From positions 1 to 27,136 of IMG/VR virus record IMGVR_UViG_3300042465_001447: a stretch of DNA of 27,136 bases; one strand, given 5' to 3'. The position numbers were made by a program, and so were the translations under genes. This DNA comes from a virus (lineage: Duplodnaviria; Caudoviricetes). Positions 3,557 through 22,563 of this stretch are shown piece by piece; the first letter of the stretch is position 1; the number at the start of each line of letters is the position of its first letter. Below the pieces are notes generated by a model that worked only from the letters and a program-made list of their open reading frames with translations, ran no database searches and was not told the DNA's origin.

Positions 3557-4510
3557 TTAGATAGAAAGTAATTCTAGTGCTCGTAGTTTGATGCCATCAT
3601 TGCGCCCTGCTAGGGTAGCAATACTAGCATCTTTCTGAGAGTAATGGTCAGCATATTCTACAACTGCTTGCCACAAACCAAACTCTGTGTCGCGAATGTT
3701 CTCTTGCGTTGGGCTATCTGAGTAGATAGCAAACGCTTTCTGCCGTGCGTTGAGAGCACGGGACTTAGCGTTCTTCTCACCCTTGGATAGTAGGTGCAGC
3801 GGTGCGTTCTCTATCTTGGTTGGCAATGCCCATACTTTTTTGAAGTAGGCTGTTGCTCTGTTGATGTCTGACTCACGTTGCATGAGATGGTTAGCCAGGT
3901 CGCTATACATATCAATGCTTGAGTAGGTTAGGTCAAGAAGGTTTCGCATATCAGATACTGATAGCACTGCGTTTTGTGTATGACGCAGCGTATAGGTATG
4001 TGCTTTATCCTTGGCTCTAAAGATACGATTGATTTGATTGGCACAAAACAATCGCTCAATGATAGGGCGTAGTACTACTGATGATGAACCATCATGACTG
4101 GTCTTGGCTAGCAAGAAGGCAGCATGTGGGTCGCCTTTGATTCCCATCTCTCTTGGTAATGACATGAGCATCCATACTTTTGCTCCGTCATCATACTCAC
4201 CTGCTGCTGCATAGCGAGCCTCGCCTGAATCAATTAATCCATCTAGTGAGCCAAAGACTTCAGAGTTCTGAAAGACTTTGTATTTGTTACCCACTACACC
4301 AATGACTGACTCTTTTCCATCGTGTGTTTTTACGACTGCTTGTTTCTTTGGTACATGCAAGAAGTCAGAGGTGTGCATCTCAGATAATCCAACAGTCCAG
4401 TTAAGTCCCGCTTGTTGTGCTACCTGTGCTGCGCTGGTTGCTTCTACCGCTACGCCTGCTTTAATCCAGGCTGAACGGTTTTTCTTTTCTACTACATCTG
4501 CTGTAGTCAT
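3557..4510 (-). CDS. DUF932 / TIGR03299 phage-plasmid protein
   Basis: AGLNWTV, GVVGNKYKVFQN, SHDGSSS, RLFCANQ, LRHT and GLWQAVVEYADH match the family pattern. Confidence 0.88.
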   Translation of the reverse strand: MTTADVVEKKNRSAWIKAGVAVEATSAAQVAQQAGLNWTVGLSEMHTSDFLHVPKKQAVVKTHDGKESVIGVVGNKYKVFQNSEVFGSLDGLIDSGEARYAAAGEYDDGAKVWMLMSLPREMGIKGDPHAAFLLAKTSHDGSSSVVLRPIIERLFCANQINRIFRAKDKAHTYTLRHTQNAVLSVSDMRNLLDLTYSSIDMYSDLANHLMQRESDINRATAYFKKVWALPTKIENAPLHLLSKGEKNAKSRALNARQKAFAIYSDSPTQENIRDTEFGLWQAVVEYADHYSQKDASIATLAGRNDGIKLRALELLSI

Positions 4511-5691: not shown

Positions 5692-6111
5692 TTAGTACCA
5701 GCCATGTTCTCTCCAATGCGTCCATGCAACTGATGGTTTGTCGTAACGGTGCACTATGTAGCCCAGCCCCCGCTCAATCTGAAGCGGGGCTGGGGTATCG
5801 GGGTCAAGTTTTAATAGTTGTGGCACACCAAAGGCAGAACTAGTAGGGTTCTGCGCTTTGTGATTCCAACCTGATTCCTTACCCCATAGTTTCATCAGAG
5901 CACGATGCTCAGACAAGTTCCATTCGGGGTATGCCATCTTCATAAACTGTTTGGCATATAGTTTCAAAGCACGGGGAGTCCAATGGAACTCGCTCATCTC
6001 CGTAGGCTTGGCTTCTGTGTGTGGTTGTGCGTGTGCTACTGGCGTGTGCCCTGGCAGCATTGACCAGAACACTAGATACCATGCTGTAAGCAAGGCGAAT
6101 AGTTTTTTCAT
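5692..6111 (-). CDS. secreted lytic transglycosylase (SLT/lysozyme-like fold)
   Basis: Signal peptide MKKLFALL...AHA, catalytic LWGKESGWN, SSAFGVPQ, QIERGLGYIVHRY and terminal HGWY typical of actinobacterial transglycosylases. Confidence 0.88.
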   Translation of the reverse strand: MKKLFALLTAWYLVFWSMLPGHTPVAHAQPHTEAKPTEMSEFHWTPRALKLYAKQFMKMAYPEWNLSEHRALMKLWGKESGWNHKAQNPTSSAFGVPQLLKLDPDTPAPLQIERGLGYIVHRYDKPSVAWTHWREHGWY

Positions 6112-7212: not shown

Positions 7213-7253
7213 AAAAAAGGGAAGGCAGGTGAGAGCCTAAGCCCCCACCTGCC
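7213..7253 (-). terminator. intrinsic terminator
   Basis: Minus strand GGCAGGTGGGGGC-TTAG-GCTCTCACCTGCC (13 bp, two G-U) followed by TTCCCTTTTTT, just after the stop at 7261. Confidence 0.8.
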
Positions 7254-7260
7254 TTTGTCT

Positions 7261-7575
7261 TTATGCTTGTGTAACTGCAGTTAGTACTACCTGCTTGAGA
7301 CCTGGCTTGCGGTCTTTGTTGTCAATGTTTGGGCGACGGTCCCATCGAGTGTTACCGATTCCCTCTGCGTTGATGTACGCGGTTTGGTCATCGAGCCAGT
7401 TGAGTGCTCGAAGTTCTGAGATTACCTTCTCGTCGAAGATAACTACTCGAGTGGAGTCAGAGCAAATCATGCGCCCTGTTGGTAGTTGTTCGTAGTCGTT
7501 GATGGTTGCTGTGTAGAAACCATTGCGGTCAACAACATTCTTGATAACGCTGTTCTTGAATGTGACTGTGTTCAT
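7261..7575 (-). CDS. putative OB-fold single-stranded nucleic-acid binding protein
   Basis: Beta-rich 104 aa protein; 'INAEGIGNTRWD...DRKPGLKQVVLTAV' parallels the last SSB strands. The ORF is secure, the function tentative. Confidence 0.55.
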   Translation of the reverse strand: MNTVTFKNSVIKNVVDRNGFYTATINDYEQLPTGRMICSDSTRVVIFDEKVISELRALNWLDDQTAYINAEGIGNTRWDRRPNIDNKDRKPGLKQVVLTAVTQA

Positions 7576-7607
7576 TTTGTTTCCTTTTCTGTTGGTAGTG
7601 TTGTTGT

Positions 7608-7644
7608 GCAGACCTGCTCCTGCACTTGTTCAGAGCAGGTCTGC
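7608..7644. other. perfect 12-bp inverted repeat between two early genes
   Basis: GCAGACCTGCTC-N13-GAGCAGGTCTGC. Confidence 0.75.
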
Positions 7645-7652
7645 TTGGTTTG

Positions 7653-8024
7653 TTAGTTACAACTTGGACATACAGCGTGCTTGTTGCATACCATTCGACA
7701 GTCTTGACAGACCATCTCATGTGGACCTAAGTCCACGACCAGTTCAAAGAACCTATCGGATAGGTTGGTGATAGGTTCAACGAACTCCTCGCGCTCAGCC
7801 TTTGGGTCATACCATGTGCCCAAAGTGGTGGGCGCTATCCACTCATGACCACTTGGCTCAGTGATGCTGTGCCATTGGTTAGGGTAGATAAGGTTGCCTT
7901 CATCTACCATGTCATGGGCGAAGTCAGTCGCCCGTGAGTCGCGTAGGTCTTGGCAGTCCACGCATAGTTCCATCTGAATCATGCACTGGTAGCATGGGTT
8001 GGAGACAGTCAGTTCATCAGACAT
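7653..8024 (-). CDS. Cys-rich, probably zinc-binding early protein
   Basis: CYQC..CVDC at the N-terminus and CQDC..CNKH..CPSC at the C-terminus; GAAAGGA RBS; first gene of the left arm. Confidence 0.8.
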   Translation of the reverse strand: MSDELTVSNPCYQCMIQMELCVDCQDLRDSRATDFAHDMVDEGNLIYPNQWHSITEPSGHEWIAPTTLGTWYDPKAEREEFVEPITNLSDRFFELVVDLGPHEMVCQDCRMVCNKHAVCPSCN

Positions 8025-8043
8025 TGGTCTTTCCTTTCTTTTG

Positions 8044-8502
8044 GGTTGGTGCTAGCCACCAATCTTTCGGGCTATTCGTAAATCGCCTTGTCACTCTACA
8101 CCTGTCTGCCGAATAGGCAGACGCTCAAGGTGGACAATTGGCAGGCTTGCCAATTTGACAAGTGCGATTACGATATGCCCGCGCCGTAGGCGCAACGGCC
8201 CAGAAAGTTCCGCGATTAGGCAAGGGCGCAATTAAGCATGGCAAACAGTGCTAGCCCCTAAAGGCTAGCCTGTGCAGACAGGCTATTGCGTTGGACGAAC
8301 AGCATGCACAGCGTGGCTTTAGACACGCTAGCATCGGCTGGCGTACCGACTGGTGAGGGGTTGACCATTGCCAAGGCTATAGAATTTCATTTATTAGCCA
8401 GCACTCTACAGTTATATTATAAACAGAACTGGGGGCGAGACATGGTCGAGCGGATAGACTACAGTCCAGCATCGCTCTGTACAGTATAGACACCTGTTCT
8501 GT
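8044..8502 (+). ncRNA. putative large structured non-coding element (RNA or ssDNA)
   Basis: Nested helices forming a three-way junction (8068-8181), a four-way junction (8226-8291) and further domains; wobble pairs favour the plus strand; no credible ORF. Confidence 0.5.
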
Positions 8503-8539
8503 CAGTACTGGGGGCAGATATTTCTGACCCTAGACTGTT

Positions 8540-8720
8540 TAAATCTCTAGTAAATTATATATAGTATCTCTACAAAAGATTTTCCCGTACAATCCCCATG
8601 CCCTGTTTAGGCTGTTATTTAATAGTTTTAATTAAATAAAAAGATTTTTGCCTTTGCACCGTTCGGAATGGCTGTTTGAACGGGTTAATACTATATAGAG
8701 ACTATTTCTTTTACTACCTA
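8540..8720. promoter_or_regulatory. AT-rich control region upstream of terminase (promoter, origin or packaging site candidate)
   Basis: Visibly AT-rich, with inverted repeats TTATTTAAT/ATTAAATAA (8615-8639) and TATATAGTAT/ATACTATATA (8558-8567, 8688-8697). Confidence 0.4.
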
Positions 8721-8806: not shown

Positions 8807-10693
8807 GTGACTTTTCAGAAGACTAATAACCCTCGTACCGCTATGGCGGCAGAGGCTAAAGCCAAAGTTTTGGCGCTGGTTTCTGAAGGTATGTCTGTGC
8901 ATAGGGCTATGGAACAAAATGGCAAAAAGCCAGACACTGTTCGCATTTGGTGTTTAAGAGACCCTGCCTTTGCTACCGCCCTTGCCGAGGCAAAGGAAAA
9001 CGCTAAAGAGCGTTCATTAAAAGCCATGGGCGTAGCCCGTGAAGATATTACCTTTCCTCAGTTCTCTGAGATGTTTTTGGACCAGCGGGTCTTTCCACAT
9101 CATATGGATTGGATTGACCTATTAGAGGGACGCGAGCCTTCGTGGCTGCATCCCAATATGATTTATGAACCAGGTAATCGGAACCGCCTTCTTTTAAACG
9201 TTCCCCCCGAGCACGCCAAATCAACCGTCATTACGGTTAACTACGCAACTTATCGCATCGCTCTCAATCCGAACGTCCGCATTATTGTGGTGTCAAAGAC
9301 CCTTATCAAAGCACGCGAGTTCGTGTACGCAATCAAGCAGAGATTATCTCACCCGCGCTGGCTCAAGTTACAAACAACCTTTGGGCCTGAAGGGGGATGG
9401 AAAGAAGACTCAGATACTTGGCGAGTTGATACGGTCTACCTTGGGAGTGATGCGAGAAACTCAAGTGAAAAAGACCCAACAATCCAGGCACTGGGTATGG
9501 GTGGGCAGATTTATGGTGCCCGCGCTGACCTGATTATCCTAGATGACTGCATAACTACCTCTAACGCTCACGAGCATGAGAAGCAGATTAACTGGTTGCA
9601 GAAGGAAGTTATTACCCGTCTGGGCAAAAATGGTAAGTTACTGGTGGTAGGTACCCGTATTGCGCCATCTGATTTTTATAAAGAACTCCGCGACCCTAAA
9701 CATTGGTCTGGTGGCAAGTCACCTTTCACATACATGGGTATGCCAGCCGTTCTTGAGTATGGGGATAAGCCAGCAGAGTGGGAAACCCTTTGGCCTGCAA
9801 GTGATATACCTTGGGATGGGGATGAAGATACGCCACCTGATGAGAATGGGTTATACCCTAAGTGGGATGGCGAAACGCTTTTCAAGCGTAGAAGCGAAGT
9901 AACACCAGCAACATGGGCGCTTGTTTACCAACAAGAAGATGTAGTTGAAGATTCAATCTTTCCACCTGAACTGGTGCAAGGTTCCATCAATGGTATGCGT
10001 AAGCGTGGACCGTTAAGACCAGGGGTTACAGGACATCCACCTCAAGTTGAGGGTTACACTATTGTGGGCTTTGACCCCGCTATGGCGGGTAACGCTGCAT
10101 TTGTGGCTATTACCTATAACAGAACAGATGGAAAGATTTATGTTCTGGATTGTTTAAACATGACAGAACCAACACCGCAAAAGATTAGGCAGGCCATTGA
10201 AGATTTTACGCTTCGGTATAAACCGCAAGAGTTCCGAGTTGAAATCAATGCCCACCAAAAAGCCTACTCCCTTGACGAAGAACTACGAACATGGCTCTCT
10301 TCACACGGCGTACGGCTTAATTCTCACTTTACAGGCAAGAACAAATGGGACACAAACTTCGGTGTGGCATCTATGTCAACACTCTTTGGCACTAGCCGTG
10401 AAGGCAAGTTCCAAAAGAACAACATTGTAGAATTACCTAGTACTGAAAACTCAGAAGGTTTAAAGGCGTTAGTCCAACAGTTAATTACTTGGAAGCCTGA
10501 TACCAGAGGTAAGACAGATACTGTTATGGCTTTATGGTTTGCGGTTATCCGCGCCCGTGAGTTTATGCAGCAAAATAGCAACATTGCTAGGTACGCAAAT
10601 AATCGTTGGGCTACTAGAGCACAGCAACATAAGCGTACATCAATTAACCTAGATGAAGCCGCATCCGAAATGTGGCAACAACAATACGGATAG
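8807..10693 (+). CDS. terL: terminase large subunit with N-terminal TerS-like HTH
   Basis: Walker A variant PPEHAKST, GARADLIILDD Walker B, VVGTR coupling motif, LVYQQE, nuclease GFDPA, VEINAHQ and DTVMALWFA. Confidence 0.95.
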   Translation: MTFQKTNNPRTAMAAEAKAKVLALVSEGMSVHRAMEQNGKKPDTVRIWCLRDPAFATALAEAKENAKERSLKAMGVAREDITFPQFSEMFLDQRVFPHHMDWIDLLEGREPSWLHPNMIYEPGNRNRLLLNVPPEHAKSTVITVNYATYRIALNPNVRIIVVSKTLIKAREFVYAIKQRLSHPRWLKLQTTFGPEGGWKEDSDTWRVDTVYLGSDARNSSEKDPTIQALGMGGQIYGARADLIILDDCITTSNAHEHEKQINWLQKEVITRLGKNGKLLVVGTRIAPSDFYKELRDPKHWSGGKSPFTYMGMPAVLEYGDKPAEWETLWPASDIPWDGDEDTPPDENGLYPKWDGETLFKRRSEVTPATWALVYQQEDVVEDSIFPPELVQGSINGMRKRGPLRPGVTGHPPQVEGYTIVGFDPAMAGNAAFVAITYNRTDGKIYVLDCLNMTEPTPQKIRQAIEDFTLRYKPQEFRVEINAHQKAYSLDEELRTWLSSHGVRLNSHFTGKNKWDTNFGVASMSTLFGTSREGKFQKNNIVELPSTENSEGLKALVQQLITWKPDTRGKTDTVMALWFAVIRAREFMQQNSNIARYANNRWATRAQQHKRTSINLDEAASEMWQQQYG

Positions 10694-13294: not shown

Positions 13295-13719
13295 CAACTG
13301 CACCTATGGATAACCGTGGTGGGTATCGCCCAACAGCCCCTCAAAATAATCCAGCAAATGTTTCAGCAACTGGTGGCAATGGACAATCAGGCCGTGCTAC
13401 ACAACCTGCAAAGTATATTGCTGGCATGCCATACGGCGAAGGACAAGCAACCATGGAACAACAAATGGGTGCACCTATGCAGGGTACTGAGCAAGTTGGA
13501 ACTAGTCGTTTAGATATTACTCCATTAACTGCTGAAACAAAGTTTAAAGATGAACCAATTACTGCTGGTGCAGATTTTGGTCCTGGTCCTGATTCTAGCA
13601 TTTTAAATCTTCCTAGCACTGAGCAAACAATTCTTTCTGTTATTAGAAAGATTGCACAGCAAGACCCAACTGGTGACAGTGAATTAATTTATCGTATGCT
13701 AGAAGATAGTGGTGCTTAA
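13291..13719 (+). CDS. Gly/Pro-rich hypothetical virion-associated protein
   Basis: GTGA and TAATG overlaps; low-complexity N-terminus and helical C-terminus. Confidence 0.75.
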   Translation: MTTAPMDNRGGYRPTAPQNNPANVSATGGNGQSGRATQPAKYIAGMPYGEGQATMEQQMGAPMQGTEQVGTSRLDITPLTAETKFKDEPITAGADFGPGPDSSILNLPSTEQTILSVIRKIAQQDPTGDSELIYRMLEDSGA

Positions 13720-16700
13720 TGCCAGAGGTGCCACTAGACCCATCTGTAGCACAGTTAAGTCCTAACTTTTATTCTGCTGCTATTAAATCAACCCTTGATG
13801 CTAAATCAAGAGTAATGATTGAACAGTTATCTCAAAGCCACAAAAAGGGTAAAGACTTACTTAAACTAAGTGATAAAAAAGCACGTGAAGAGTTTTTAAA
13901 ACTTGACCCAATTGTGCAAAACAACATCCGTTATATTTATTCTGACAAAGAACAATTCTTACCAGAACAAAATTTAGTAGGTAAAGTTGTTCAAGGCATT
14001 GGTAAAGCAGCAATGGGAACTGCTACAGGAATCTTTAGTCCATTTATTGCAGCATTTAAAGTTGCAGAAGAATATGGACAGGTTTTAAATACAGCAAACA
14101 TTGCTCGTGCTCAAATGGAACAAGGTAAACCATTTACAAAGAAACTTCTTTCAGATTCTTATAATGGATTAAACTCTTGGCGATGGGATAAAGTTGCTAA
14201 ATTTGAAAAGCAATATGGAAAAGCATTAATTGCTTTAGCAAGAGGCAATGCAGAAGGCCGCACAATTAGTGAGTCAATTGATGAATATGGCACAGTTGAT
14301 GCTGACATGTATGCTGCTATTCAATTTATGGGCGACGAGCCTACTAAGTTTCAAAACCTTTTAGATACTCTTAAGTTAGAGACTCAGGTTTCACCAGGCC
14401 GTGACTTTGCAAATAAAATGCCAACAAACAACACTACTGTTAATAAAAATCACTGGGCTGTTAAGTTTACTAAAATGTTGGGTATTGATGTATCAACTAA
14501 AGAGGGCGTAACAAAAGCCAAAAAACTTGTTTCAGGACCAGTTGATGCTATTTACCAGGTTGCTATTGACCCATTAACTTATGTTGGTGTAGGTCCTGCA
14601 GTTAAAGCATTTACTAAAGGTGTAGACGGTATTCAAGTTGGTGCAAAAGAGGCCTTGCAATTTGTTGGTTTAAAATCTCGTGGACAAAGAATGGCAGACC
14701 AGTATCAGTTTATTTCTGAAAAGGCTGGCACTGCTTCTGCTGGAATGGACTGGGCGTTTCGCCAACCAGAAGTTGTTAACCTTTGGGATAACGAACTAGG
14801 TCCTTTGTTTAAAAAGTATACAGAGTCTTCAAGCCCAACTGTTAAATCACAGGTATGGAATGAAATTAAACAAGGCTATCCACAGTATCGCAATAGAGAG
14901 TTAGTAAAATTAGTTTCAACAGAGATGAAAAAAACTAATGATTACAATGCTGCTGGTGCAAAACGATTCTTTACACAAGTAGATGACTTTGACACAATGC
15001 TTAGTGGTCCAGTCGATGGTGTTTCATTTCGCCGTGATGGTATTCCTGTTGCTCGTTTTTATAGAAACATGACATCTGCAGTTCATAGAACTGCTTATGA
15101 TTTGTTTAATCCTACTGTTGGCGCAAAAGCAACTGATGATGCAATCCGTCAAAACGACGAAGGTCTAAAGTCTATTATGGATACATTAAAAACAGTATCT
15201 AATGACTCAGAAGTTTTACTTAATCCAAACATTGAAGATATTTTTGCACTACAAAGCAATGTAAAAAGCGCACGTAAAATTGCCTATCAAATTGGAACTG
15301 GTTTAAGCCGTTCGCCTGGTCGTATTCTTTGGGGCGATGATTCCATTAAGACGGTTGAAAGCGTAAGAAACCTAGCCAACCAGGTAATGGATACAAAGTT
15401 TGCAGATGCCTTTGCTGAGGCTTATCCAAACGAACCAGCAGAAGTTCAGATTACAATGATTCGTAATCTTTACAATGCATTTATGATTAAAATTGGAATG
15501 TACGGTAGCCCTGGCGGTAAGGCTCAAGCAGAAGAAATTCTTGCTAAAACCTTTAACGAAACAGGTATGCTTTCTACAACAAGAAGCGAAGTGCCTCTTG
15601 AGTGGGTAGATGAGATTAGCCCTAATTTAATTCGTTATGAAAACGATATTCCATTTCAGGCTTCAAAGGGAATTATTGAACCATCTCAGATGACAGATGG
15701 TATATCACCACTTCCTTACGATTTGTTGTATCAGTATGCTGCTACATCTAAACTAAGTGAAAAGACTAACTTTACAAATCTACTTGGTGGGGCAACAAGA
15801 AATAATTTTGTTCGCAAATACACAGACTTTTGGGCAGACCTTACACTTTACCCACGTCTAGGTATACGTTCTGCTATTGACGAAACATTTTTCTTTTTTA
15901 TGTATGCTCCTTACTACGATGTCAAAGCATTTCTTAAGGGTGAGGCAATATTCCCAACAAGAGCCTTAACCTCTATTACTGGTTCCAAGGCATCTCAAGG
16001 TCAGTATGCTCGTGGCGTTTATAAGGTCATGAAAAATCTTGACCCAACCAAAAAGTTTAGCCCAGAGGTTCGTTATAACGCTATTAAAAAGTTAGCGGAA
16101 ATGGAATCTGTTAAGCGTGGATACAATGTTCCACAAGCAGAAATCTCAATGGCATTGATTCGTGAAGACATGGTTTATCGTGCTCAAGATTTGTACAAAA
16201 ATACTGTTTCAGAATCAACTTGGAAAAACATTGAAAAGTTAATGCGTAATAATCCAGTTGTATTTGAGTCAATGATTAACTCAATGGGTGCACGTTCTTC
16301 TATATCTGGAAAGATAGATGTAGATTTTATAGATTCAATGTTTACTCCTAGCAATTTGAGTAAGATGATGACAGATGCTGGACTTGTAAAGAGTGGTAAG
16401 TATACTCCTCGACAGGTTTCAGAAATGTCAGAGTCAGCCATTGCTGTAACTCATTTTGATAACTGGTCTATTCGTTTTCCTTACAACAGTGAGCCTATTG
16501 CACCTGGAATAAAGTTATCTCCAGCCCCAGTTTTTTACAAGCATAACGCATTAAAGACAAAAGATGATTTTATTGCAGCCCGTAATGAGTTAATGGAATC
16601 TATGGGTGTTGGATACAATGATGAAATTGAAGGCTTCGCTGTAACTAACCCAGAACTAGCCAAAAGATTCTTATCAAAGTTTTCATCAACAGTTTACTAC

Positions 16701-19022
16701 CGTCAAAAAGGTGTACCAGATGAGGCAATTGCACGTATCCATGTAGAGAACATGCTTCTTGACATGAGAAATACATTTCATGGTGGGCCAAACACTTACA
16801 ATGAAGAACTATTTGATTTAGTTAAAAGCAAGTATGCAGAAATTGAAATTTTCCGCATGAAGTCTAAGCAAAGCATGGACAATGCTTGGGAAAATGCATC
16901 TGCTGCTCTTACCTTTGATGAGTTCCAGAAGGCAACAGTAGGTCGCCACCCAGTAAGTGGGGAAATTAATACACGACTTGTTAGCCATGGAGACAATAAA
17001 GACATGGCTGTCTTTGAAGAAGAAGGCGGATTGCCTAAGATTCTTGAAAAGTTCCAGAACTGGTCTATGGAAGTAATGGATGCAACCGTTACTGGCATGT
17101 ATCGCCAGAAGGCTTTGTGGATTTACTTTGACCAAAGAATGGATAGTCTTGTTCCTTACGAAAACATGCTACGCAATCGCATGGAAAAGGAATTAATTGA
17201 GCAAGGCATGTCACCAGCACTGGCTAAAACAAGAGCGGCAGCCCATGCTGAGAAACAAACTGTTGAAATTGCCTTTAAAGACTCAAGCGAAAAACTTTTA
17301 GAGTATGTAGATAACCCAGAAGTTAAGTCTAACTTTGCAGTATCGGTCCGTTCTGTTGGTAGATTCTACCGTGCAACAGAAGACTTCCATCGCCGTATGT
17401 ATCGCTTGTTTACAAAGGCACCATTACGTACTCTATATCGTTTGCGTTTACTAAACACTGGTTTAGATGCAGCAGGAGATGTTTACGAAGATGATAAGGG
17501 AGACAAGTATGTTGTATTCCCTACAGATACTATTATTAACTCTGCAATTGAACCAGTTATTCGTACCTTAACTGGCAACAAGACATTTAACATACCAACA
17601 TTTAATGACATCACATTAAAGTTGCGTTTGATTAACCCATCTTTTGCACCTGATGCTGGTCAACCAGCGTTTGCTGGTCCTATTGGAGCAGTAAGCATTC
17701 TTTCTCTTCGTGCATTACTACGTAATATAGTTCCATTTGCCGAAAGAATTATACCTGGCAATCAAGAGGGTATGGTTGCAGAATTACAACCTAGATTTGA
17801 AAAAGCCGCTGACGTAGTTGGTCAGATTGGATTAGGCAACTTTGCTGATTCAATGACATTTAGAAAAGCAATAACACCTATGCTTGTTGATACAAGTATG
17901 GGTGCATTATCAACGCTTACTCCATATGAGTGGGATAGACAGACTACAACTGCAACTCTTCAGGCAATGGCTTATTTCCAGGCTAATGGAATGGGTATTT
18001 CAGAGGATGCCACAGCCGAAGAAAAGAAAAAGTATATTGATAATCTAAAGATTTCTGTTAGCAATATTATGATTGGTCGCACTATCTTGGGTTATATATC
18101 TCCAGGTATGCCAACATTTAAGGAAAGTAAAGACCTACCTGCATACATGCGTAAGGTTGGCATTACATCCTTTAAGGCAGAGTTCTGGGATATTTACAAT
18201 GGTATTCTTCGTAATGCTGGTGATGATGTTAGCGATGTATTTGACCTAGCAGTTGCTACATTTGTAGGCAAAAATCCAGGCAAGGTAATCTGGACAGTGC
18301 CACGCACCGATAAGGAATACAAAGTATTTATTGCACAGACAACTGAGGTTAAAGACTGGGCTATTAAAAACAAGTCCTTTGTAGATACCTATAAAGAAGT
18401 TGCTTATTTGTTTGCGCCACGTGCTGGTGATTATAACTCAGATGTTTATAACTGGCTACAAGCAGAAGGTTTAATTAAGTTACCAGAGTTTGAGGATTAC
18501 TTACTACGCCTTCAAATTGCAGAAGATAAAGAAAAATACTTTGAAATCGGCAATCAATTAGAAAAAAGACTTGAAGTGGTTGGCATAACACAAGAACGCA
18601 AAGAGTTAATTAACATTGCTGCTCAATCTAAAAAGGATTTAATTACTTCTAATCCTTACCTAGAGGCTGCTATTAATGGTTCTATTAATGAGCGTGGCGA
18701 ACTAGGTAAGAAGTTTAAGACCCTTAATGAGGCAATCAATAGTAATAAAACTCCTGTTGATGCGCAGACTCGTAAGGCCATGAAACTAATTCTTGAAGAA
18801 GTAGCATCCTTTGTTGTCATGGCTGAGGATGAATCTATGGGTAGACGCTATGACTTTACTCAAATTAAAGAACAAAGAAAACTAGAGATAGTAGAAATTA
18901 TTGACAAGTTAGTTAAGTCTAGCCCAGCAATTTCTGAAGCAAATAGGTTGATATTTAAACCATTACTTAATTCATATTCAAGAGATGTTAATACGGCAGG
19001 TCCTACGGAGGTAAATAGATAA
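13719..19022 (+). CDS. very large putative internal virion (ejection) protein
   Basis: 1767 aa, apparently mostly helical, in the virion operon of a podovirus-like phage; no catalytic motif recognised. Confidence 0.65.
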   Translation: MPEVPLDPSVAQLSPNFYSAAIKSTLDAKSRVMIEQLSQSHKKGKDLLKLSDKKAREEFLKLDPIVQNNIRYIYSDKEQFLPEQNLVGKVVQGIGKAAMGTATGIFSPFIAAFKVAEEYGQVLNTANIARAQMEQGKPFTKKLLSDSYNGLNSWRWDKVAKFEKQYGKALIALARGNAEGRTISESIDEYGTVDADMYAAIQFMGDEPTKFQNLLDTLKLETQVSPGRDFANKMPTNNTTVNKNHWAVKFTKMLGIDVSTKEGVTKAKKLVSGPVDAIYQVAIDPLTYVGVGPAVKAFTKGVDGIQVGAKEALQFVGLKSRGQRMADQYQFISEKAGTASAGMDWAFRQPEVVNLWDNELGPLFKKYTESSSPTVKSQVWNEIKQGYPQYRNRELVKLVSTEMKKTNDYNAAGAKRFFTQVDDFDTMLSGPVDGVSFRRDGIPVARFYRNMTSAVHRTAYDLFNPTVGAKATDDAIRQNDEGLKSIMDTLKTVSNDSEVLLNPNIEDIFALQSNVKSARKIAYQIGTGLSRSPGRILWGDDSIKTVESVRNLANQVMDTKFADAFAEAYPNEPAEVQITMIRNLYNAFMIKIGMYGSPGGKAQAEEILAKTFNETGMLSTTRSEVPLEWVDEISPNLIRYENDIPFQASKGIIEPSQMTDGISPLPYDLLYQYAATSKLSEKTNFTNLLGGATRNNFVRKYTDFWADLTLYPRLGIRSAIDETFFFFMYAPYYDVKAFLKGEAIFPTRALTSITGSKASQGQYARGVYKVMKNLDPTKKFSPEVRYNAIKKLAEMESVKRGYNVPQAEISMALIREDMVYRAQDLYKNTVSESTWKNIEKLMRNNPVVFESMINSMGARSSISGKIDVDFIDSMFTPSNLSKMMTDAGLVKSGKYTPRQVSEMSESAIAVTHFDNWSIRFPYNSEPIAPGIKLSPAPVFYKHNALKTKDDFIAARNELMESMGVGYNDEIEGFAVTNPELAKRFLSKFSSTVYYRQKGVPDEAIARIHVENMLLDMRNTFHGGPNTYNEELFDLVKSKYAEIEIFRMKSKQSMDNAWENASAALTFDEFQKATVGRHPVSGEINTRLVSHGDNKDMAVFEEEGGLPKILEKFQNWSMEVMDATVTGMYRQKALWIYFDQRMDSLVPYENMLRNRMEKELIEQGMSPALAKTRAAAHAEKQTVEIAFKDSSEKLLEYVDNPEVKSNFAVSVRSVGRFYRATEDFHRRMYRLFTKAPLRTLYRLRLLNTGLDAAGDVYEDDKGDKYVVFPTDTIINSAIEPVIRTLTGNKTFNIPTFNDITLKLRLINPSFAPDAGQPAFAGPIGAVSILSLRALLRNIVPFAERIIPGNQEGMVAELQPRFEKAADVVGQIGLGNFADSMTFRKAITPMLVDTSMGALSTLTPYEWDRQTTTATLQAMAYFQANGMGISEDATAEEKKKYIDNLKISVSNIMIGRTILGYISPGMPTFKESKDLPAYMRKVGITSFKAEFWDIYNGILRNAGDDVSDVFDLAVATFVGKNPGKVIWTVPRTDKEYKVFIAQTTEVKDWAIKNKSFVDTYKEVAYLFAPRAGDYNSDVYNWLQAEGLIKLPEFEDYLLRLQIAEDKEKYFEIGNQLEKRLEVVGITQERKELINIAAQSKKDLITSNPYLEAAINGSINERGELGKKFKTLNEAINSNKTPVDAQTRKAMKLILEEVASFVVMAEDESMGRRYDFTQIKEQRKLEIVEIIDKLVKSSPAISEANRLIFKPLLNSYSRDVNTAGPTEVNR

Positions 19023-19870: not shown

Positions 19871-20869
19871 ATGGCAGACTTGGCTACCCTTCAGCAACAG
19901 TATGACAATGAATTAAAAGCAATTAATGATATGCCACCAGGGGCTGCAAAAACAAGGATGCAATTAGATTTTGATGTTAAGTATCCTAAAGGCAGGCCAC
20001 AAAAGGTAGAAGATACAGCCAATGAAGGCGCAGCAGCGGCATTAGCATACGGTATAACAGAATCTTTAATTGCTGCCTTTCCAGAACTACGTCCTATCTA
20101 TGAAAAGTTTTTGGCTAAAGATTATGCTGGTGCTAGATTAGATTACTTTGCAACTAATTATTATAAAAATCTAACTGATTCTGCTAAGACTCGACAGGGA
20201 TTAAAGGCAACAGCCCGTGGTCAGTATGACCAACAACTAGAAGCATACCGTTTAAATCAACGTAAGCGTTTAACTTCTAAAGGTATTAACCTAGATGATG
20301 AATCTTTTAATCTTTTTACAGAAACTGCATTTGATTCAGGACTAGATGAAAATCAATTAGATATTAGGATTCTTAATTCTGGAAAGTTTGGGCCAATTGG
20401 TGGCTCTACCCTTGGATTAGTTAATACACTTAAAGCCTATGCTGATGATTATGGTGTAAACAATTTATTAAACCAGTCATTCTGGGACCAGAAGTCTATG
20501 GATTTATTTGCTGGCAGAATTACAGAGGATGACTTAGAACAAGAAATTCGTAACCTATCGGCTAGTGCCTACGCTGCTTATGCACCTGGCATTATGGCTG
20601 GTCGTACTCTTGCTTCACAAACATCTGCAATTAAACAGACATATGCAAACCTATATGGATTAGACCCAGATACTGTGTCATATAGCGCACCAAACTTTAT
20701 GAAGTTACTTCAGTATGTAGACCCTAGGACTAAACAACCAGCACCTATTCCTTTATGGGAAGCGGAAAAGATTATTAAATCTCAAGATGATTGGTTGTAT
20801 TCAAAACCCGCTCAAGACCAATTCAACCAGGTTGGTGTTGGAATCCTTAAAGAATGGAAACTTATTTAA
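19871..20869 (+). CDS. putative internal virion protein
   Basis: 332 aa helical protein abutting its neighbours. Confidence 0.6.
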   Translation: MADLATLQQQYDNELKAINDMPPGAAKTRMQLDFDVKYPKGRPQKVEDTANEGAAAALAYGITESLIAAFPELRPIYEKFLAKDYAGARLDYFATNYYKNLTDSAKTRQGLKATARGQYDQQLEAYRLNQRKRLTSKGINLDDESFNLFTETAFDSGLDENQLDIRILNSGKFGPIGGSTLGLVNTLKAYADDYGVNNLLNQSFWDQKSMDLFAGRITEDDLEQEIRNLSASAYAAYAPGIMAGRTLASQTSAIKQTYANLYGLDPDTVSYSAPNFMKLLQYVDPRTKQPAPIPLWEAEKIIKSQDDWLYSKPAQDQFNQVGVGILKEWKLI

Positions 20870-22563
20870 TGGCTGATGCAAGCGTTGCGTTAAGAAAACT
20901 TCAGTCAGGTCAGGCATTAAATGATGCTGAAAAAAAGATTCTTGGTATATCTGTAACTGTTGTTACTCCTACCCCTACACCTACTCCAGCACCAGTTGCT
21001 GCAAATGATTTTATGGAAGAGGCTATTCCTTTAAATGTTAAAGGTAGCACGGGCGGAACTCCTACTGACACATCTAAAATAACACAGGCTGAAGTTACTG
21101 CTGCTTCTATTGCTGCTGCAAGAGAACTAGCAATAACGCCTTATACAGAACTTTCTGCTGCTGAAAGAGCAATGATGAGTCAGTCAGAAAAAACTGCTTA
21201 TCTTAAGGCAGCCCGTGAAGAAAAGATGCGCCTTGATACGGAAGAACGTGCAGCATCTGACCCAATGAAAAACCCAACTGAACGTCCACAGGCTGCACAA
21301 GATGAAGAAGGTTATATAAAGTATTATGGTTGGGTTGGCGGAGCATCATCTGGAAGTTGGAAACTTTACAAACAAAATAAACTTTCTGCTTCAGCAGACC
21401 AAATTCGTTCTGCAACGGAACGTTCTCAAGGTGGAACAACACAGGCTAGTTTTAGTAGTGCAGTAGGTGCAAACTTTGTGCCTACGGGACAAAATAACAT
21501 AACTGGAACAACTGACACAACAGTTAATCCAACAGTAAGTACTACCACAACTACTAATCCAACAGTAAGTACAACTACTACTACAAATCCTACTGTAAGC
21601 ACTACTGCTACAAGTACTACAGGATTAGATGCTCAGACTACTGCTTTAATTAAATCCTTACAAGACCAAATTGCAGCATTGACCAAACAGGTTACTGGTA
21701 CAACAACAGCAGCAGCGGAACAAAAAGCACTTGATGAAAAGATACGTAAAGAAAATGCGCTTGCTAGTTTAACTTCTACATTTACTAAATATAACTTGCA
21801 GTCTTTAATTCCAAAGATTAAAGAACTAGTTATTAATGGTGCAACTGAATCTACCATTGCTTTAGAACTAGCAGAAACTCCTGAGTATAAGCAAAGATTT
21901 AAGGCAAATCAGGAGCGCTTAAAAAAGAACTTAGCAGTATTAGACCCTGGTACTTATATTGGTATGGAAGATTCATACCGCCAAGCATTACGTGCATATG
22001 GCTTAAAGCAATTTGATACTGATGATTATGTATCTCAGTTTATTGCTAACGATATTTCTGCTAACGAGTTGTCTAACCGTATTGTTACTGCCGTTCAGCG
22101 TGTGCAAAATGCTGACCCAGCAATTACCAAGCAGTTACGAGACTTTTATAACATTGGTCAAAATGACCTTGTTGCTTATGTGCTTGACCCTAACCAACAG
22201 TTTCAGAAGATTGAGCGTCAAGTTCAGGCTGCTGAGATTGGTGTTGCAGCAGCCCGTCAGGGCATTACTGCTGGTGTTCAAGTTGCTGAACAATTGGCTG
22301 CACAAGGAGTTTCTCAAGCAGAAGCACAAAAGGGTTATGCAACTATTGCAGATATCCTTCCTGATGCTAAGAGACTATCTGATATCTATGGTACAACCCT
22401 TGAAGGTTATGACCTTGGACAGGCAGAGCAAGAAGTATTTAATCAACTTGCCTCTGCTCAGCGTAGACGACAGAAGTTAACTCAACGAGAAGTTGCAGCA
22501 TTTGGTGGTTCAAGTGGAACCAACAGAACAAGTCTTACTACATCAAGCGTAGGACAAATCTAA
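20869..22563 (+). CDS. putative internal virion protein with Thr/Pro-rich linkers
   Basis: Start revised to 20869 (TAATG). Low-complexity N-half and Ala/Gln-rich helical C-half. Confidence 0.65.
   Translation: MADASVALRKLQSGQALNDAEKKILGISVTVVTPTPTPTPAPVAANDFMEEAIPLNVKGSTGGTPTDTSKITQAEVTAASIAAARELAITPYTELSAAERAMMSQSEKTAYLKAAREEKMRLDTEERAASDPMKNPTERPQAAQDEEGYIKYYGWVGGASSGSWKLYKQNKLSASADQIRSATERSQGGTTQASFSSAVGANFVPTGQNNITGTTDTTVNPTVSTTTTTNPTVSTTTTTNPTVSTTATSTTGLDAQTTALIKSLQDQIAALTKQVTGTTTAAAEQKALDEKIRKENALASLTSTFTKYNLQSLIPKIKELVINGATESTIALELAETPEYKQRFKANQERLKKNLAVLDPGTYIGMEDSYRQALRAYGLKQFDTDDYVSQFIANDISANELSNRIVTAVQRVQNADPAITKQLRDFYNIGQNDLVAYVLDPNQQFQKIERQVQAAEIGVAAARQGITAGVQVAEQLAAQGVSQAEAQKGYATIADILPDAKRLSDIYGTTLEGYDLGQAEQEVFNQLASAQRRRQKLTQREVAAFGGSSGTNRTSLTTSSVGQI
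21526..21615 (+). repeat. three tandem 30-bp coding repeats (NPTVSTTTTT)
   Basis: AATCC(A/T)AC(A/T)GTAAG units start at 21526, 21556 and 21586. Confidence 0.85.

Follow-up and report, generated by a model that had tools for sequence, protein, structure and literature searches.

Gene organization around the element

The window, by which we mean the whole 27,136-nucleotide stretch of DNA that was analysed, comes from an uncultured freshwater (lake) podovirus related to the Streptomyces phages of cluster BF. Its leftward early and replication genes end at 8024, and its rightward terminase, portal and capsid genes begin at 8807. The terminase large subunit, which contains an N-terminal small-subunit-like HTH region (8807–10693, + strand), has its nearest cultured counterparts in the Streptomyces cluster BF podoviruses (46–47% identity). 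Because of this kinship and of a WhiB gene found in four of the five complete relatives, the host is probably an actinobacterium, as far as sequence can tell. The complete relative G001 encodes its own primase, WhiB and a sigma-K-like factor; a sigma70 region 4 profile found no match in any of the five complete relatives.

The first early gene (gene 1; 7653–8024, − strand) encodes a protein of 123 amino acids with Cys clusters at both ends. The fetched loci contained 137 homologous ORFs, which belong to no Pfam or PHROG family. They have a conserved motif resembling SGH(D/E)W, and their middle part varies greatly in length. Gene 2 of the operon (7261–7575, − strand) encodes a protein of 104 amino acids that AlphaFold predicts to adopt an SSB fold (pLDDT 90.1); the top Foldseek matches were SSBs (probability 1.0, best E 1.8e-4). 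The original prediction had tentatively tied the non-coding element upstream of gene 1 to an SSB-like neighbour, and the fold supports that link. An SSB was found in all 38 focal loci whose upstream sequence reaches 2.5 kb or more, versus none of 76 loci of a sister clade (the ct2KA10 clade, whose terminase is ≈ 63% identical to that of the window; 2.5 kb flank, one profile). Immanuel3 gave no match to the SSB profile. A terminator-like hairpin with a 15-pair stem and a T tail (7222–7255, − strand) appears to close this first two-gene early operon, and gene 1 and the SSB gene are probably co-transcribed.

Further into the early arm lie a DUF932 gene and a transglycosylase-like gene (3557–4510 and 5692–6111, − strand); both gene types are also present in the leading region of F. 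In the rightward arm, a 1767-aa putative virion protein is encoded at 13719–19022 (+ strand). Searches of Pfam, PHROG and PDB with this protein gave no match, the nearest Atlas family was LPD38, and its similarity to Immanuel3 gp9 was faint. A virion RNA polymerase was sought by sequence, in this protein as well, and none was found. Thr-rich short peptide repeats occur at 21426–21602, within a 569-aa ORF (20854–22563).

The element is strongly folded on both strands

The DNA between the arms had been described as an almost continuously folded element, 8044–8502, and the description holds. In each of four folds the element beat all 100 dinucleotide shuffles, with z of −5.0 (+ strand) and −4.5 (− strand) for RNA parameters and −7.9 (+ strand) and −5.7 (− strand) for DNA parameters; the + strand as DNA thus folded best. 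A small hairpin (8044–8064), a three-way junction in which 8069–8093 pairs with 8156–8180 around inner helices at 8099–8132 and 8136–8155, and a hairpin with a GTA triloop closed by C-G (8181–8193, + strand) were all in the predicted folds at the places claimed for them. So were the AGCGTG/CACGCT stem (8310–8329) and the GGCTA/TAGCC stem (8375–8399); the latter has a compensatory variant in two relatives, L009 and L018, and together with two AT-rich tracts it occupies the stretch 8375–8421 adjoining the terminal repeat. Two larger domains, closed by GGCAA/TTGCC (8219–8372) and ACAGAAC/GTTCTGT (8423–8502), were present in the DNA centroid and missing from the RNA centroid. The former is a lineage-specific accessory branched domain (+ strand) and holds the recurring hairpin 8310–8329 with its G.A mismatch. 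The promoter domain discussed below folded equally on the two strands (−46.4 versus −46.5), and 8181–8456 alone had a z of −3.95.

A plus-strand bias of G-T mismatches, also part of the original prediction, was not found: the strands had 8 versus 8 with RNA parameters and 1 versus 1 with DNA parameters, and the 14 G-T against 10 A-C counted across alleles (11 versus 8 in shuffles) are not a significant bias. Purine–purine mismatches did lean to the + strand (G.A 16 versus C.T 8; G.G 14 versus C.C 2), about half of this being noise. The element had been assigned to no known family, in agreement with our searches. Rfam gave no match at gathering score in the window (best E of a relaxed search, 0.57), ARAGORN found nothing in the element, and blastn found no match to it in phage records, nor in plasmids at E ≤ 1. 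The allele was recovered identical letter for letter in two independent lake DNA runs.

Strong folding was also seen through 7500–8030, that is, gene 1 and the spacer between gene 1 and the SSB gene, where the z values of 150-nt windows, on one strand or on both, went down to between −3.8 and −4.9. The folded zone may therefore extend ≈ 1 kb from the genome end.

The element is a swappable cassette

Homology to close relatives ends at 8035–8041, next to the gene 1 ribosome-binding site (8029–8039, − strand), which forms the left edge of the cassette. Among 22 relatives with 95–99% terminase identity and > 1 kb of upstream sequence, 20 carry non-alignable sequence from ≈ 8041 to 8365 or 8521 between flanks that are kept and 78–96% identical. 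The element is thus not conserved as a unit; relatives hold replacements. To survey these, we delimited 117 loci, which gave 66 allele clusters. Seven clusters longer than 1,000 nt were left out as mis-called gene starts, and 59 were kept; five loci had no start call, and the start of L004 was corrected by hand. Measured from the ribosome-binding site to the repeat end, 17 alleles are short (231–299 nt) and 42 are long (426–860 nt). Of the long alleles, 40 fold with z < −3 (8 shuffles each).

What lies beyond the −10-like box described below is the most variable part: 40 alleles fall into 11 families that share no alignment, and 17 of the 59 alleles do without it. One relative, L114, has the allele of the window minus a 69-nt subdomain, the rest being kept. 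Comparison of L139 with L024, L006 and the window showed the alleles to be mosaics in which modules of different families are combined. Several alleles coexist within one sample, and this co-occurrence and the mosaic structure point to frequent recombination near the genome end. Since alleles are related and mosaic, counts of alleles overstate their independence. In L053, a short hairpin module is duplicated before two successive early genes, the copies lying ≈ 900–800 and 520–430 nt upstream of its terminase match; the module therefore behaves as a portable promoter unit. In the families of L036, L040 and L096, the fold-back arm reaches over the gene 1 ribosome-binding site.

Covariation had been suggested as a check on the fold, and it sustained the junction. 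Junction pairing is kept in nine related alleles. Both partners differ in 8 of the 26 pairs, and 97% of cells can pair, compared with 26–41% in slid controls (the sequences being related, the shuffle count is not a probability). The two inner hairpins (8099–8155, + strand) act as variable filler between the arms of the junction. A large non-coding RNA (packaging RNA, antiterminator or decoy), the option first put forward for the element, is not supported, because the downstream families cannot be aligned, 17 of the 59 alleles lack that part and cUUCGg loops are absent; there is no shared architecture. The element is a swappable cassette and probably not a large non-coding RNA.

A promoter-like register on the folded + strand

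Actinobacterial −10 boxes follow the pattern TANNNT. The consensus of the promoter boxes is TTGACA/TATAAT (PMC11541004). The non-template arm of the junction carries a −35-like hexamer, TTGACA (8155–8160, + strand), 8 nt ahead of a −10-like hexamer, TACGAT (8169–8174, + strand). In the predicted fold of the window both hexamers pair with 8076–8093, and a short duplex resumes at 8069–8072/8177–8180. The + strand is the template of the early genes, and 8069–8093 forms the template arm in the fold-back; on the coding strand, the copy of this arm has TACGAA and lacks the final T of a −10 box. In the nine aligned alleles, TTTGAC is invariant, and so are the first two letters (T and A) and the final T of the −10 box. 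The −10-like hexamer docks at 8080, 41 nt from the ribosome-binding site. From this register we predict that transcription would start near 8068 and run leftward, just before the hairpin 8044–8064, which would be 5'-terminal in the mRNA, and the ribosome-binding site.

We scored the register across alleles by a docking test that uses pairing alone. In 34 of the 42 long alleles a TANNNT docks 33–47 nt from the first ribosome-binding site, whereas four control windows gave 1, 2, 0 and 0. The coding strand at the dock reads TANNNT in just 1 of these 34. Ten new clusters, fetched later and held out, gave eight docks and none in the controls. By predicted fold, the template strand thus restores a −10 box in front of the gene in 34/42 and 8/10 alleles. 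The test failed in 8 of the 42 long alleles, and 5 of the 17 short alleles passed it. TTGA-type hexamers were paired with TANNNT on the + strand at spacers of 6–8 nt (21 allele counts) and 15–16 nt (15 allele counts), compared with 2 for the same pair on the − strand and ≈ 0.4 expected per spacer (n = 59). The L040 family has a −10 box only, without a −35, behind a short covarying hairpin. To our knowledge, sigma-A cannot span an 8-nt spacer between −35 and −10 in duplex DNA. Among 16 other early genes of the window there were three marginal docks, at 50–54 nt; gene 1 alone docks within 33–47 nt. The hexamer scan suits TANNNT boxes only, and it missed the −10 and −35 boxes of the Frpo regions of F. 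A second hexamer pair on the window, TTGCCA-6-TAGAAT (8368–8385), is not kept in close relatives and was set aside.

Relatives with ordinary promoters

The sister clade offers a contrast. There, an ordinary coding-strand promoter was found in 25 of 28 clusters, mostly with a 17–18-nt spacer and the −10 box ≈ 30–55 nt from the ribosome-binding site, and 3 of the 28 passed the docking test (14 of 46 sister-clade loci could not be delimited). Folding was weaker as well, −0.09 to −0.17 versus −0.17 to −0.32 kcal/mol/nt in the focal clade. An ordinary coding-strand promoter near the ribosome-binding site occurred in 6 of the 42 long focal alleles and 7 of the 17 short ones; a loose pattern matched 13 of the 42 long alleles, against 12.0 expected, and was rejected as a sign of such a promoter. 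Four BF phages each carry three coding-strand TTGAC boxes. Judging by this contrast with the sister clade and the BF phages, the −10 box of the long alleles seems to have shifted off the coding strand and onto the fold-back arm, in the same register. A folded single-stranded or hairpin promoter was among the options initially listed for the element, and the docking test and the sister-clade contrast speak in its favour.

The probable right end of the genome

An 18-nt motif (8526–8543, + strand) is conserved in the terminal repeats; a similar motif occurs in the BF repeat, and in Immanuel3 it lies 22 nt before the repeat end. It is likely a packaging or processing signal. In the set of 172 loci with this motif, 26 contigs start < 300 nt before it, 14 of them at 66–76 nt (two of these duplicate other rows), and 10 contigs end < 300 nt after it, 3 of them at 22–24 nt. 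From contig ends, rather than raw reads, and the motif offset, we place a direct terminal repeat of ≈ 110 bp at ≈ 8457–8566. The direct terminal repeat of BF phages is 253 bp (PMC9753666); our own BF phage comparison gave 275 bp.

The cassette would therefore lie just inside the right terminal repeat and be unique to the right end, with the + strand as the 3' terminus there. Its last domain (8423–8502), closed by the helix 8423–8429/8496–8502, straddles the left boundary of the repeat at ≈ 8457. A functional tie to the terminase had also been proposed; what stands of it is positional, the terminal repeat lying between the element and the terminase gene. DNA contigs cover the cassette at about the depth of its flanks and thus give no hint that virions carry a permanently single-stranded tail. 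Short GC-rich inverted repeats surround an AT tract at 8405–8470 and at the equivalent places in relatives. In most alleles they abut or span the presumed left cut site, which makes them a candidate terminase or repeat-duplication signal.

Loops and transcripts

Loop types bear on whether the folded molecule is DNA or RNA. In DNA, loops of the GNA and GNNA types are stable (PMC13037366, PMC3201870). With stems of at least five pairs, G..A loops numbered 19 on the + strand versus 4 on the − strand (4.5 versus 3.1 in shuffles), with 6 GNYA, 2 GNRA and 0 TTCG; with stems of at least three pairs the excess was gone (13 mini-hairpins versus 13.3 in shuffles). The 20,630 nt of alleles contain no cUUCGg loop, and a hairpin with a G.A mismatch of the 8310–8329 type recurs on the + strand in 23 of the 42 long alleles. 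The loops argue modestly for DNA; promoter geometry carries the case.

RNA contigs covered gene 1 in three of six metatranscriptomes, from three studies, and stopped 14, 15 and 17 nt past 8041. The extra letters of two of these contigs match the allele type of L024 and L139, in which the predicted start lies ≈ 20 nt beyond the contig stop and which has a non-consensus −10 box, TACAAG, that failed the docking test. That RNA contigs stop near the predicted start of gene 1 is a weak hint, the data being unstranded and possibly from one campaign. The six runs yielded no RNA contig for 8042–8650, which says little, since the samples carry other alleles and contigs drop rare alleles.

A proposed single-stranded DNA promoter at a genome end

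We propose, with a probability of about 60%, that the folded + strand of 8044–8180 serves as an ssDNA promoter for host RNA polymerase, one that resembles Frpo without being homologous to it; the proposal is a model built on the register and the fold. According to this model the right genome end would become single-stranded, the + strand being left as a 3' tail. The ssDNA could arise by 5'→3' resection for repeat annealing or as an unreplicated gap after replication; both would expose the + strand. A gap at the 3' end after replication from an internal origin is described for Streptomyces replicons (PMC5449611). The + strand of 8044–8180 would then fold back into a promoter-shaped fork, to which the host sigma-A holoenzyme would bind, starting near 8068 and transcribing the genes for the Cys-rich and the SSB-fold proteins. 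Gap filling would turn the promoter off, and SSB would therefore be made while ssDNA is present. The remaining 200–500 nt would serve as exchangeable filler, paired with itself, that conceals the tail. A bolder version, which we hold tentatively and put somewhat below even odds, is that these phages swapped their early promoter for a fold-back ssDNA promoter and that processing of the end is the on-switch, or sensor, of the SSB operon. It would concern a widespread freshwater clade of dsDNA podoviruses, an exchangeable self-paired tail and a −35 box that lies too close by roughly one helical turn.

Other explanations have to be weighed against this. The hexamers on the + strand could form a dsDNA promoter of the ordinary kind that reads rightward and makes a structured small RNA (≈ 8181–8400, ending at T-rich tracts), the inverted arm merely regulating that promoter. 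The 15 allele counts with a near-canonical 15–16-nt spacer on the + strand fit this, as does the downstream part, which folds (z −3.95) and often ends in a hairpin and T run. It would leave gene 1 without a driver, however, and the covarying pairing of an untranscribed arm at a constant distance from the ribosome-binding site of gene 1 would go unexplained. The 11 unalignable downstream families, with no cUUCGg and few GNRA loops, also speak against an RNA, and we regard the small RNA as unlikely, while taking it more seriously than the alternatives that follow. A single large non-coding RNA over 8044–8502 (packaging RNA, antiterminator leader or decoy) would account for the continuous strong fold of 40/42 long alleles and for the covarying junction. 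Alleles have no shared architecture, though, and 17 of the 59 are short; the span crosses the genome-end boundary, promoter hexamers are conserved inside it, and the RNA contigs of gene 1 stop at its left edge. This makes it very improbable, and the least probable of the alternatives.

The two remaining explanations keep the fold and change its use or its reader. In the first, the fold would serve mainly as a single-strand origin, with host RNA polymerase priming the minus strand on a displaced + strand, as at Frpo and the M13 origin. Frpo primes replication too (PMC12672017), the M13 origin has been suggested to do without sigma region 4 (PMC7948647), which fits alleles without a usable −35, and the SSB gene adjoins. 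Yet the register is that of an mRNA promoter, with a 5' hairpin and a ribosome-binding site following and the sister-clade promoter in about the same place; G001 has its own primase, and a leftward primer at 8068 cannot fill a gap on its right. We give an origin little credence. We think equally little of a structure formed without a free single strand (driven by supercoiling or SSB, as in N4), or of a phage factor that accepts the 6–8-nt spacing, such as the sigma-like protein, WhiB or an injected polymerase. Both strands fold alike, the 6–8-nt class is the commonest, G001 has genes for WhiB and a sigma-K-like factor, and the 1767-aa putative virion protein belongs to no family. Against this, the hexamers fit the housekeeping consensus, at the first step phage factors have still to be made, and the 1767-aa protein has no polymerase match by sequence. 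Extruding branched, imperfect stems of 130–300 nt from duplex DNA is moreover costly.

Relation to known systems

Promoters at which host RNA polymerase acts on ssDNA are known from conjugative plasmids and from the origins of ssDNA phages. The preferred reading, an ssDNA promoter at the phage genome end, has its closest parallel in the Frpo/ssi elements of F, ColIb-P9 and pESBL. The Frpo stem-loop rebuilds −10 and −35 boxes and is silenced once the DNA is double-stranded (PMC9849209, PMC11541004, PMC12672017), and Frpo2 of F precedes ssb (PMC9849209). Shared features are a folded template strand, boxes for host RNA polymerase, early-acting DNA and ssb downstream. In the phage the SSB fold is two genes downstream, before the terminator, and a DUF932 gene lies in the early arm as in the leading region of F. 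The phage differs in being a tailed dsDNA phage without a known ssDNA transfer step, not the leading region of a conjugative T-strand. Its cassette is branched and hypervariable, whereas Frpo is one long conserved stem, and its −35 box stands at 6–8 nt, at 15–16 nt or is absent. A comparison of the 117 alleles with the F leading region gave a best match of 16 nt (E 0.007).

M13 is an ssDNA phage, and the RNA made at its origin is a primer. At its minus-strand origin, too, RNA polymerase starts on a folded single strand (PMC7948647). The lake phage differs in that its register points to an mRNA and that it is a dsDNA podovirus. In coliphage N4, a virion polymerase reads a tiny extruded hairpin without −10 and −35 boxes. 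The N4 early promoters are alike in placing a template-strand DNA hairpin in a dsDNA podovirus (PMC5449611), whereas the boxes of the lake phage are of the housekeeping type and sequence searches turned up no virion polymerase. Streptomyces telomeres also have a folded 3' tail left by linear replication, with G:A-closed GNA loops; they are conserved palindromes patched by Tap/Tpg (PMC5449611), in contrast to the predicted direct repeats and the freely swapped tail sequence here. The BF podoviruses (Beephvirinae; PMC9753666) share the gene order, direct terminal repeats, a similar repeat motif and early genes that run inward from a non-coding right end; they differ in having three ordinary coding-strand TTGAC boxes and no continuous fold. 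Our search of an open-access library turned up no description of an ssDNA promoter in tailed dsDNA phages; some parts of the cassette may figure as unexplained RNAs among the candidate-RNA models of PMC10690425.

The cassette is a real, previously unassigned element, and most likely an ssDNA promoter in an unexpected kind of genome. If this is true, the end of an entering or replicating lake-phage genome would be single-stranded on purpose, with expression coupled to that state. This would matter for how linear phage DNA that ends in short repeats withstands resection by the host. The ≈ 50 alleles found in nature, which fall into three spacing classes, amount to a ready mutational scan of what actinobacterial RNA polymerase needs of a fork. 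More generally, strongly folded phage intergenic regions that are scored as RNA could turn out to be DNA elements.

Upstream of the terminase gene, a conserved hairpin (8660–8697, + strand) has a 3' arm that reads TTGAAC, 7 nt, TACTAT, the same short spacing as in the cassette. It is possibly a late promoter read with a phage sigma-like factor.
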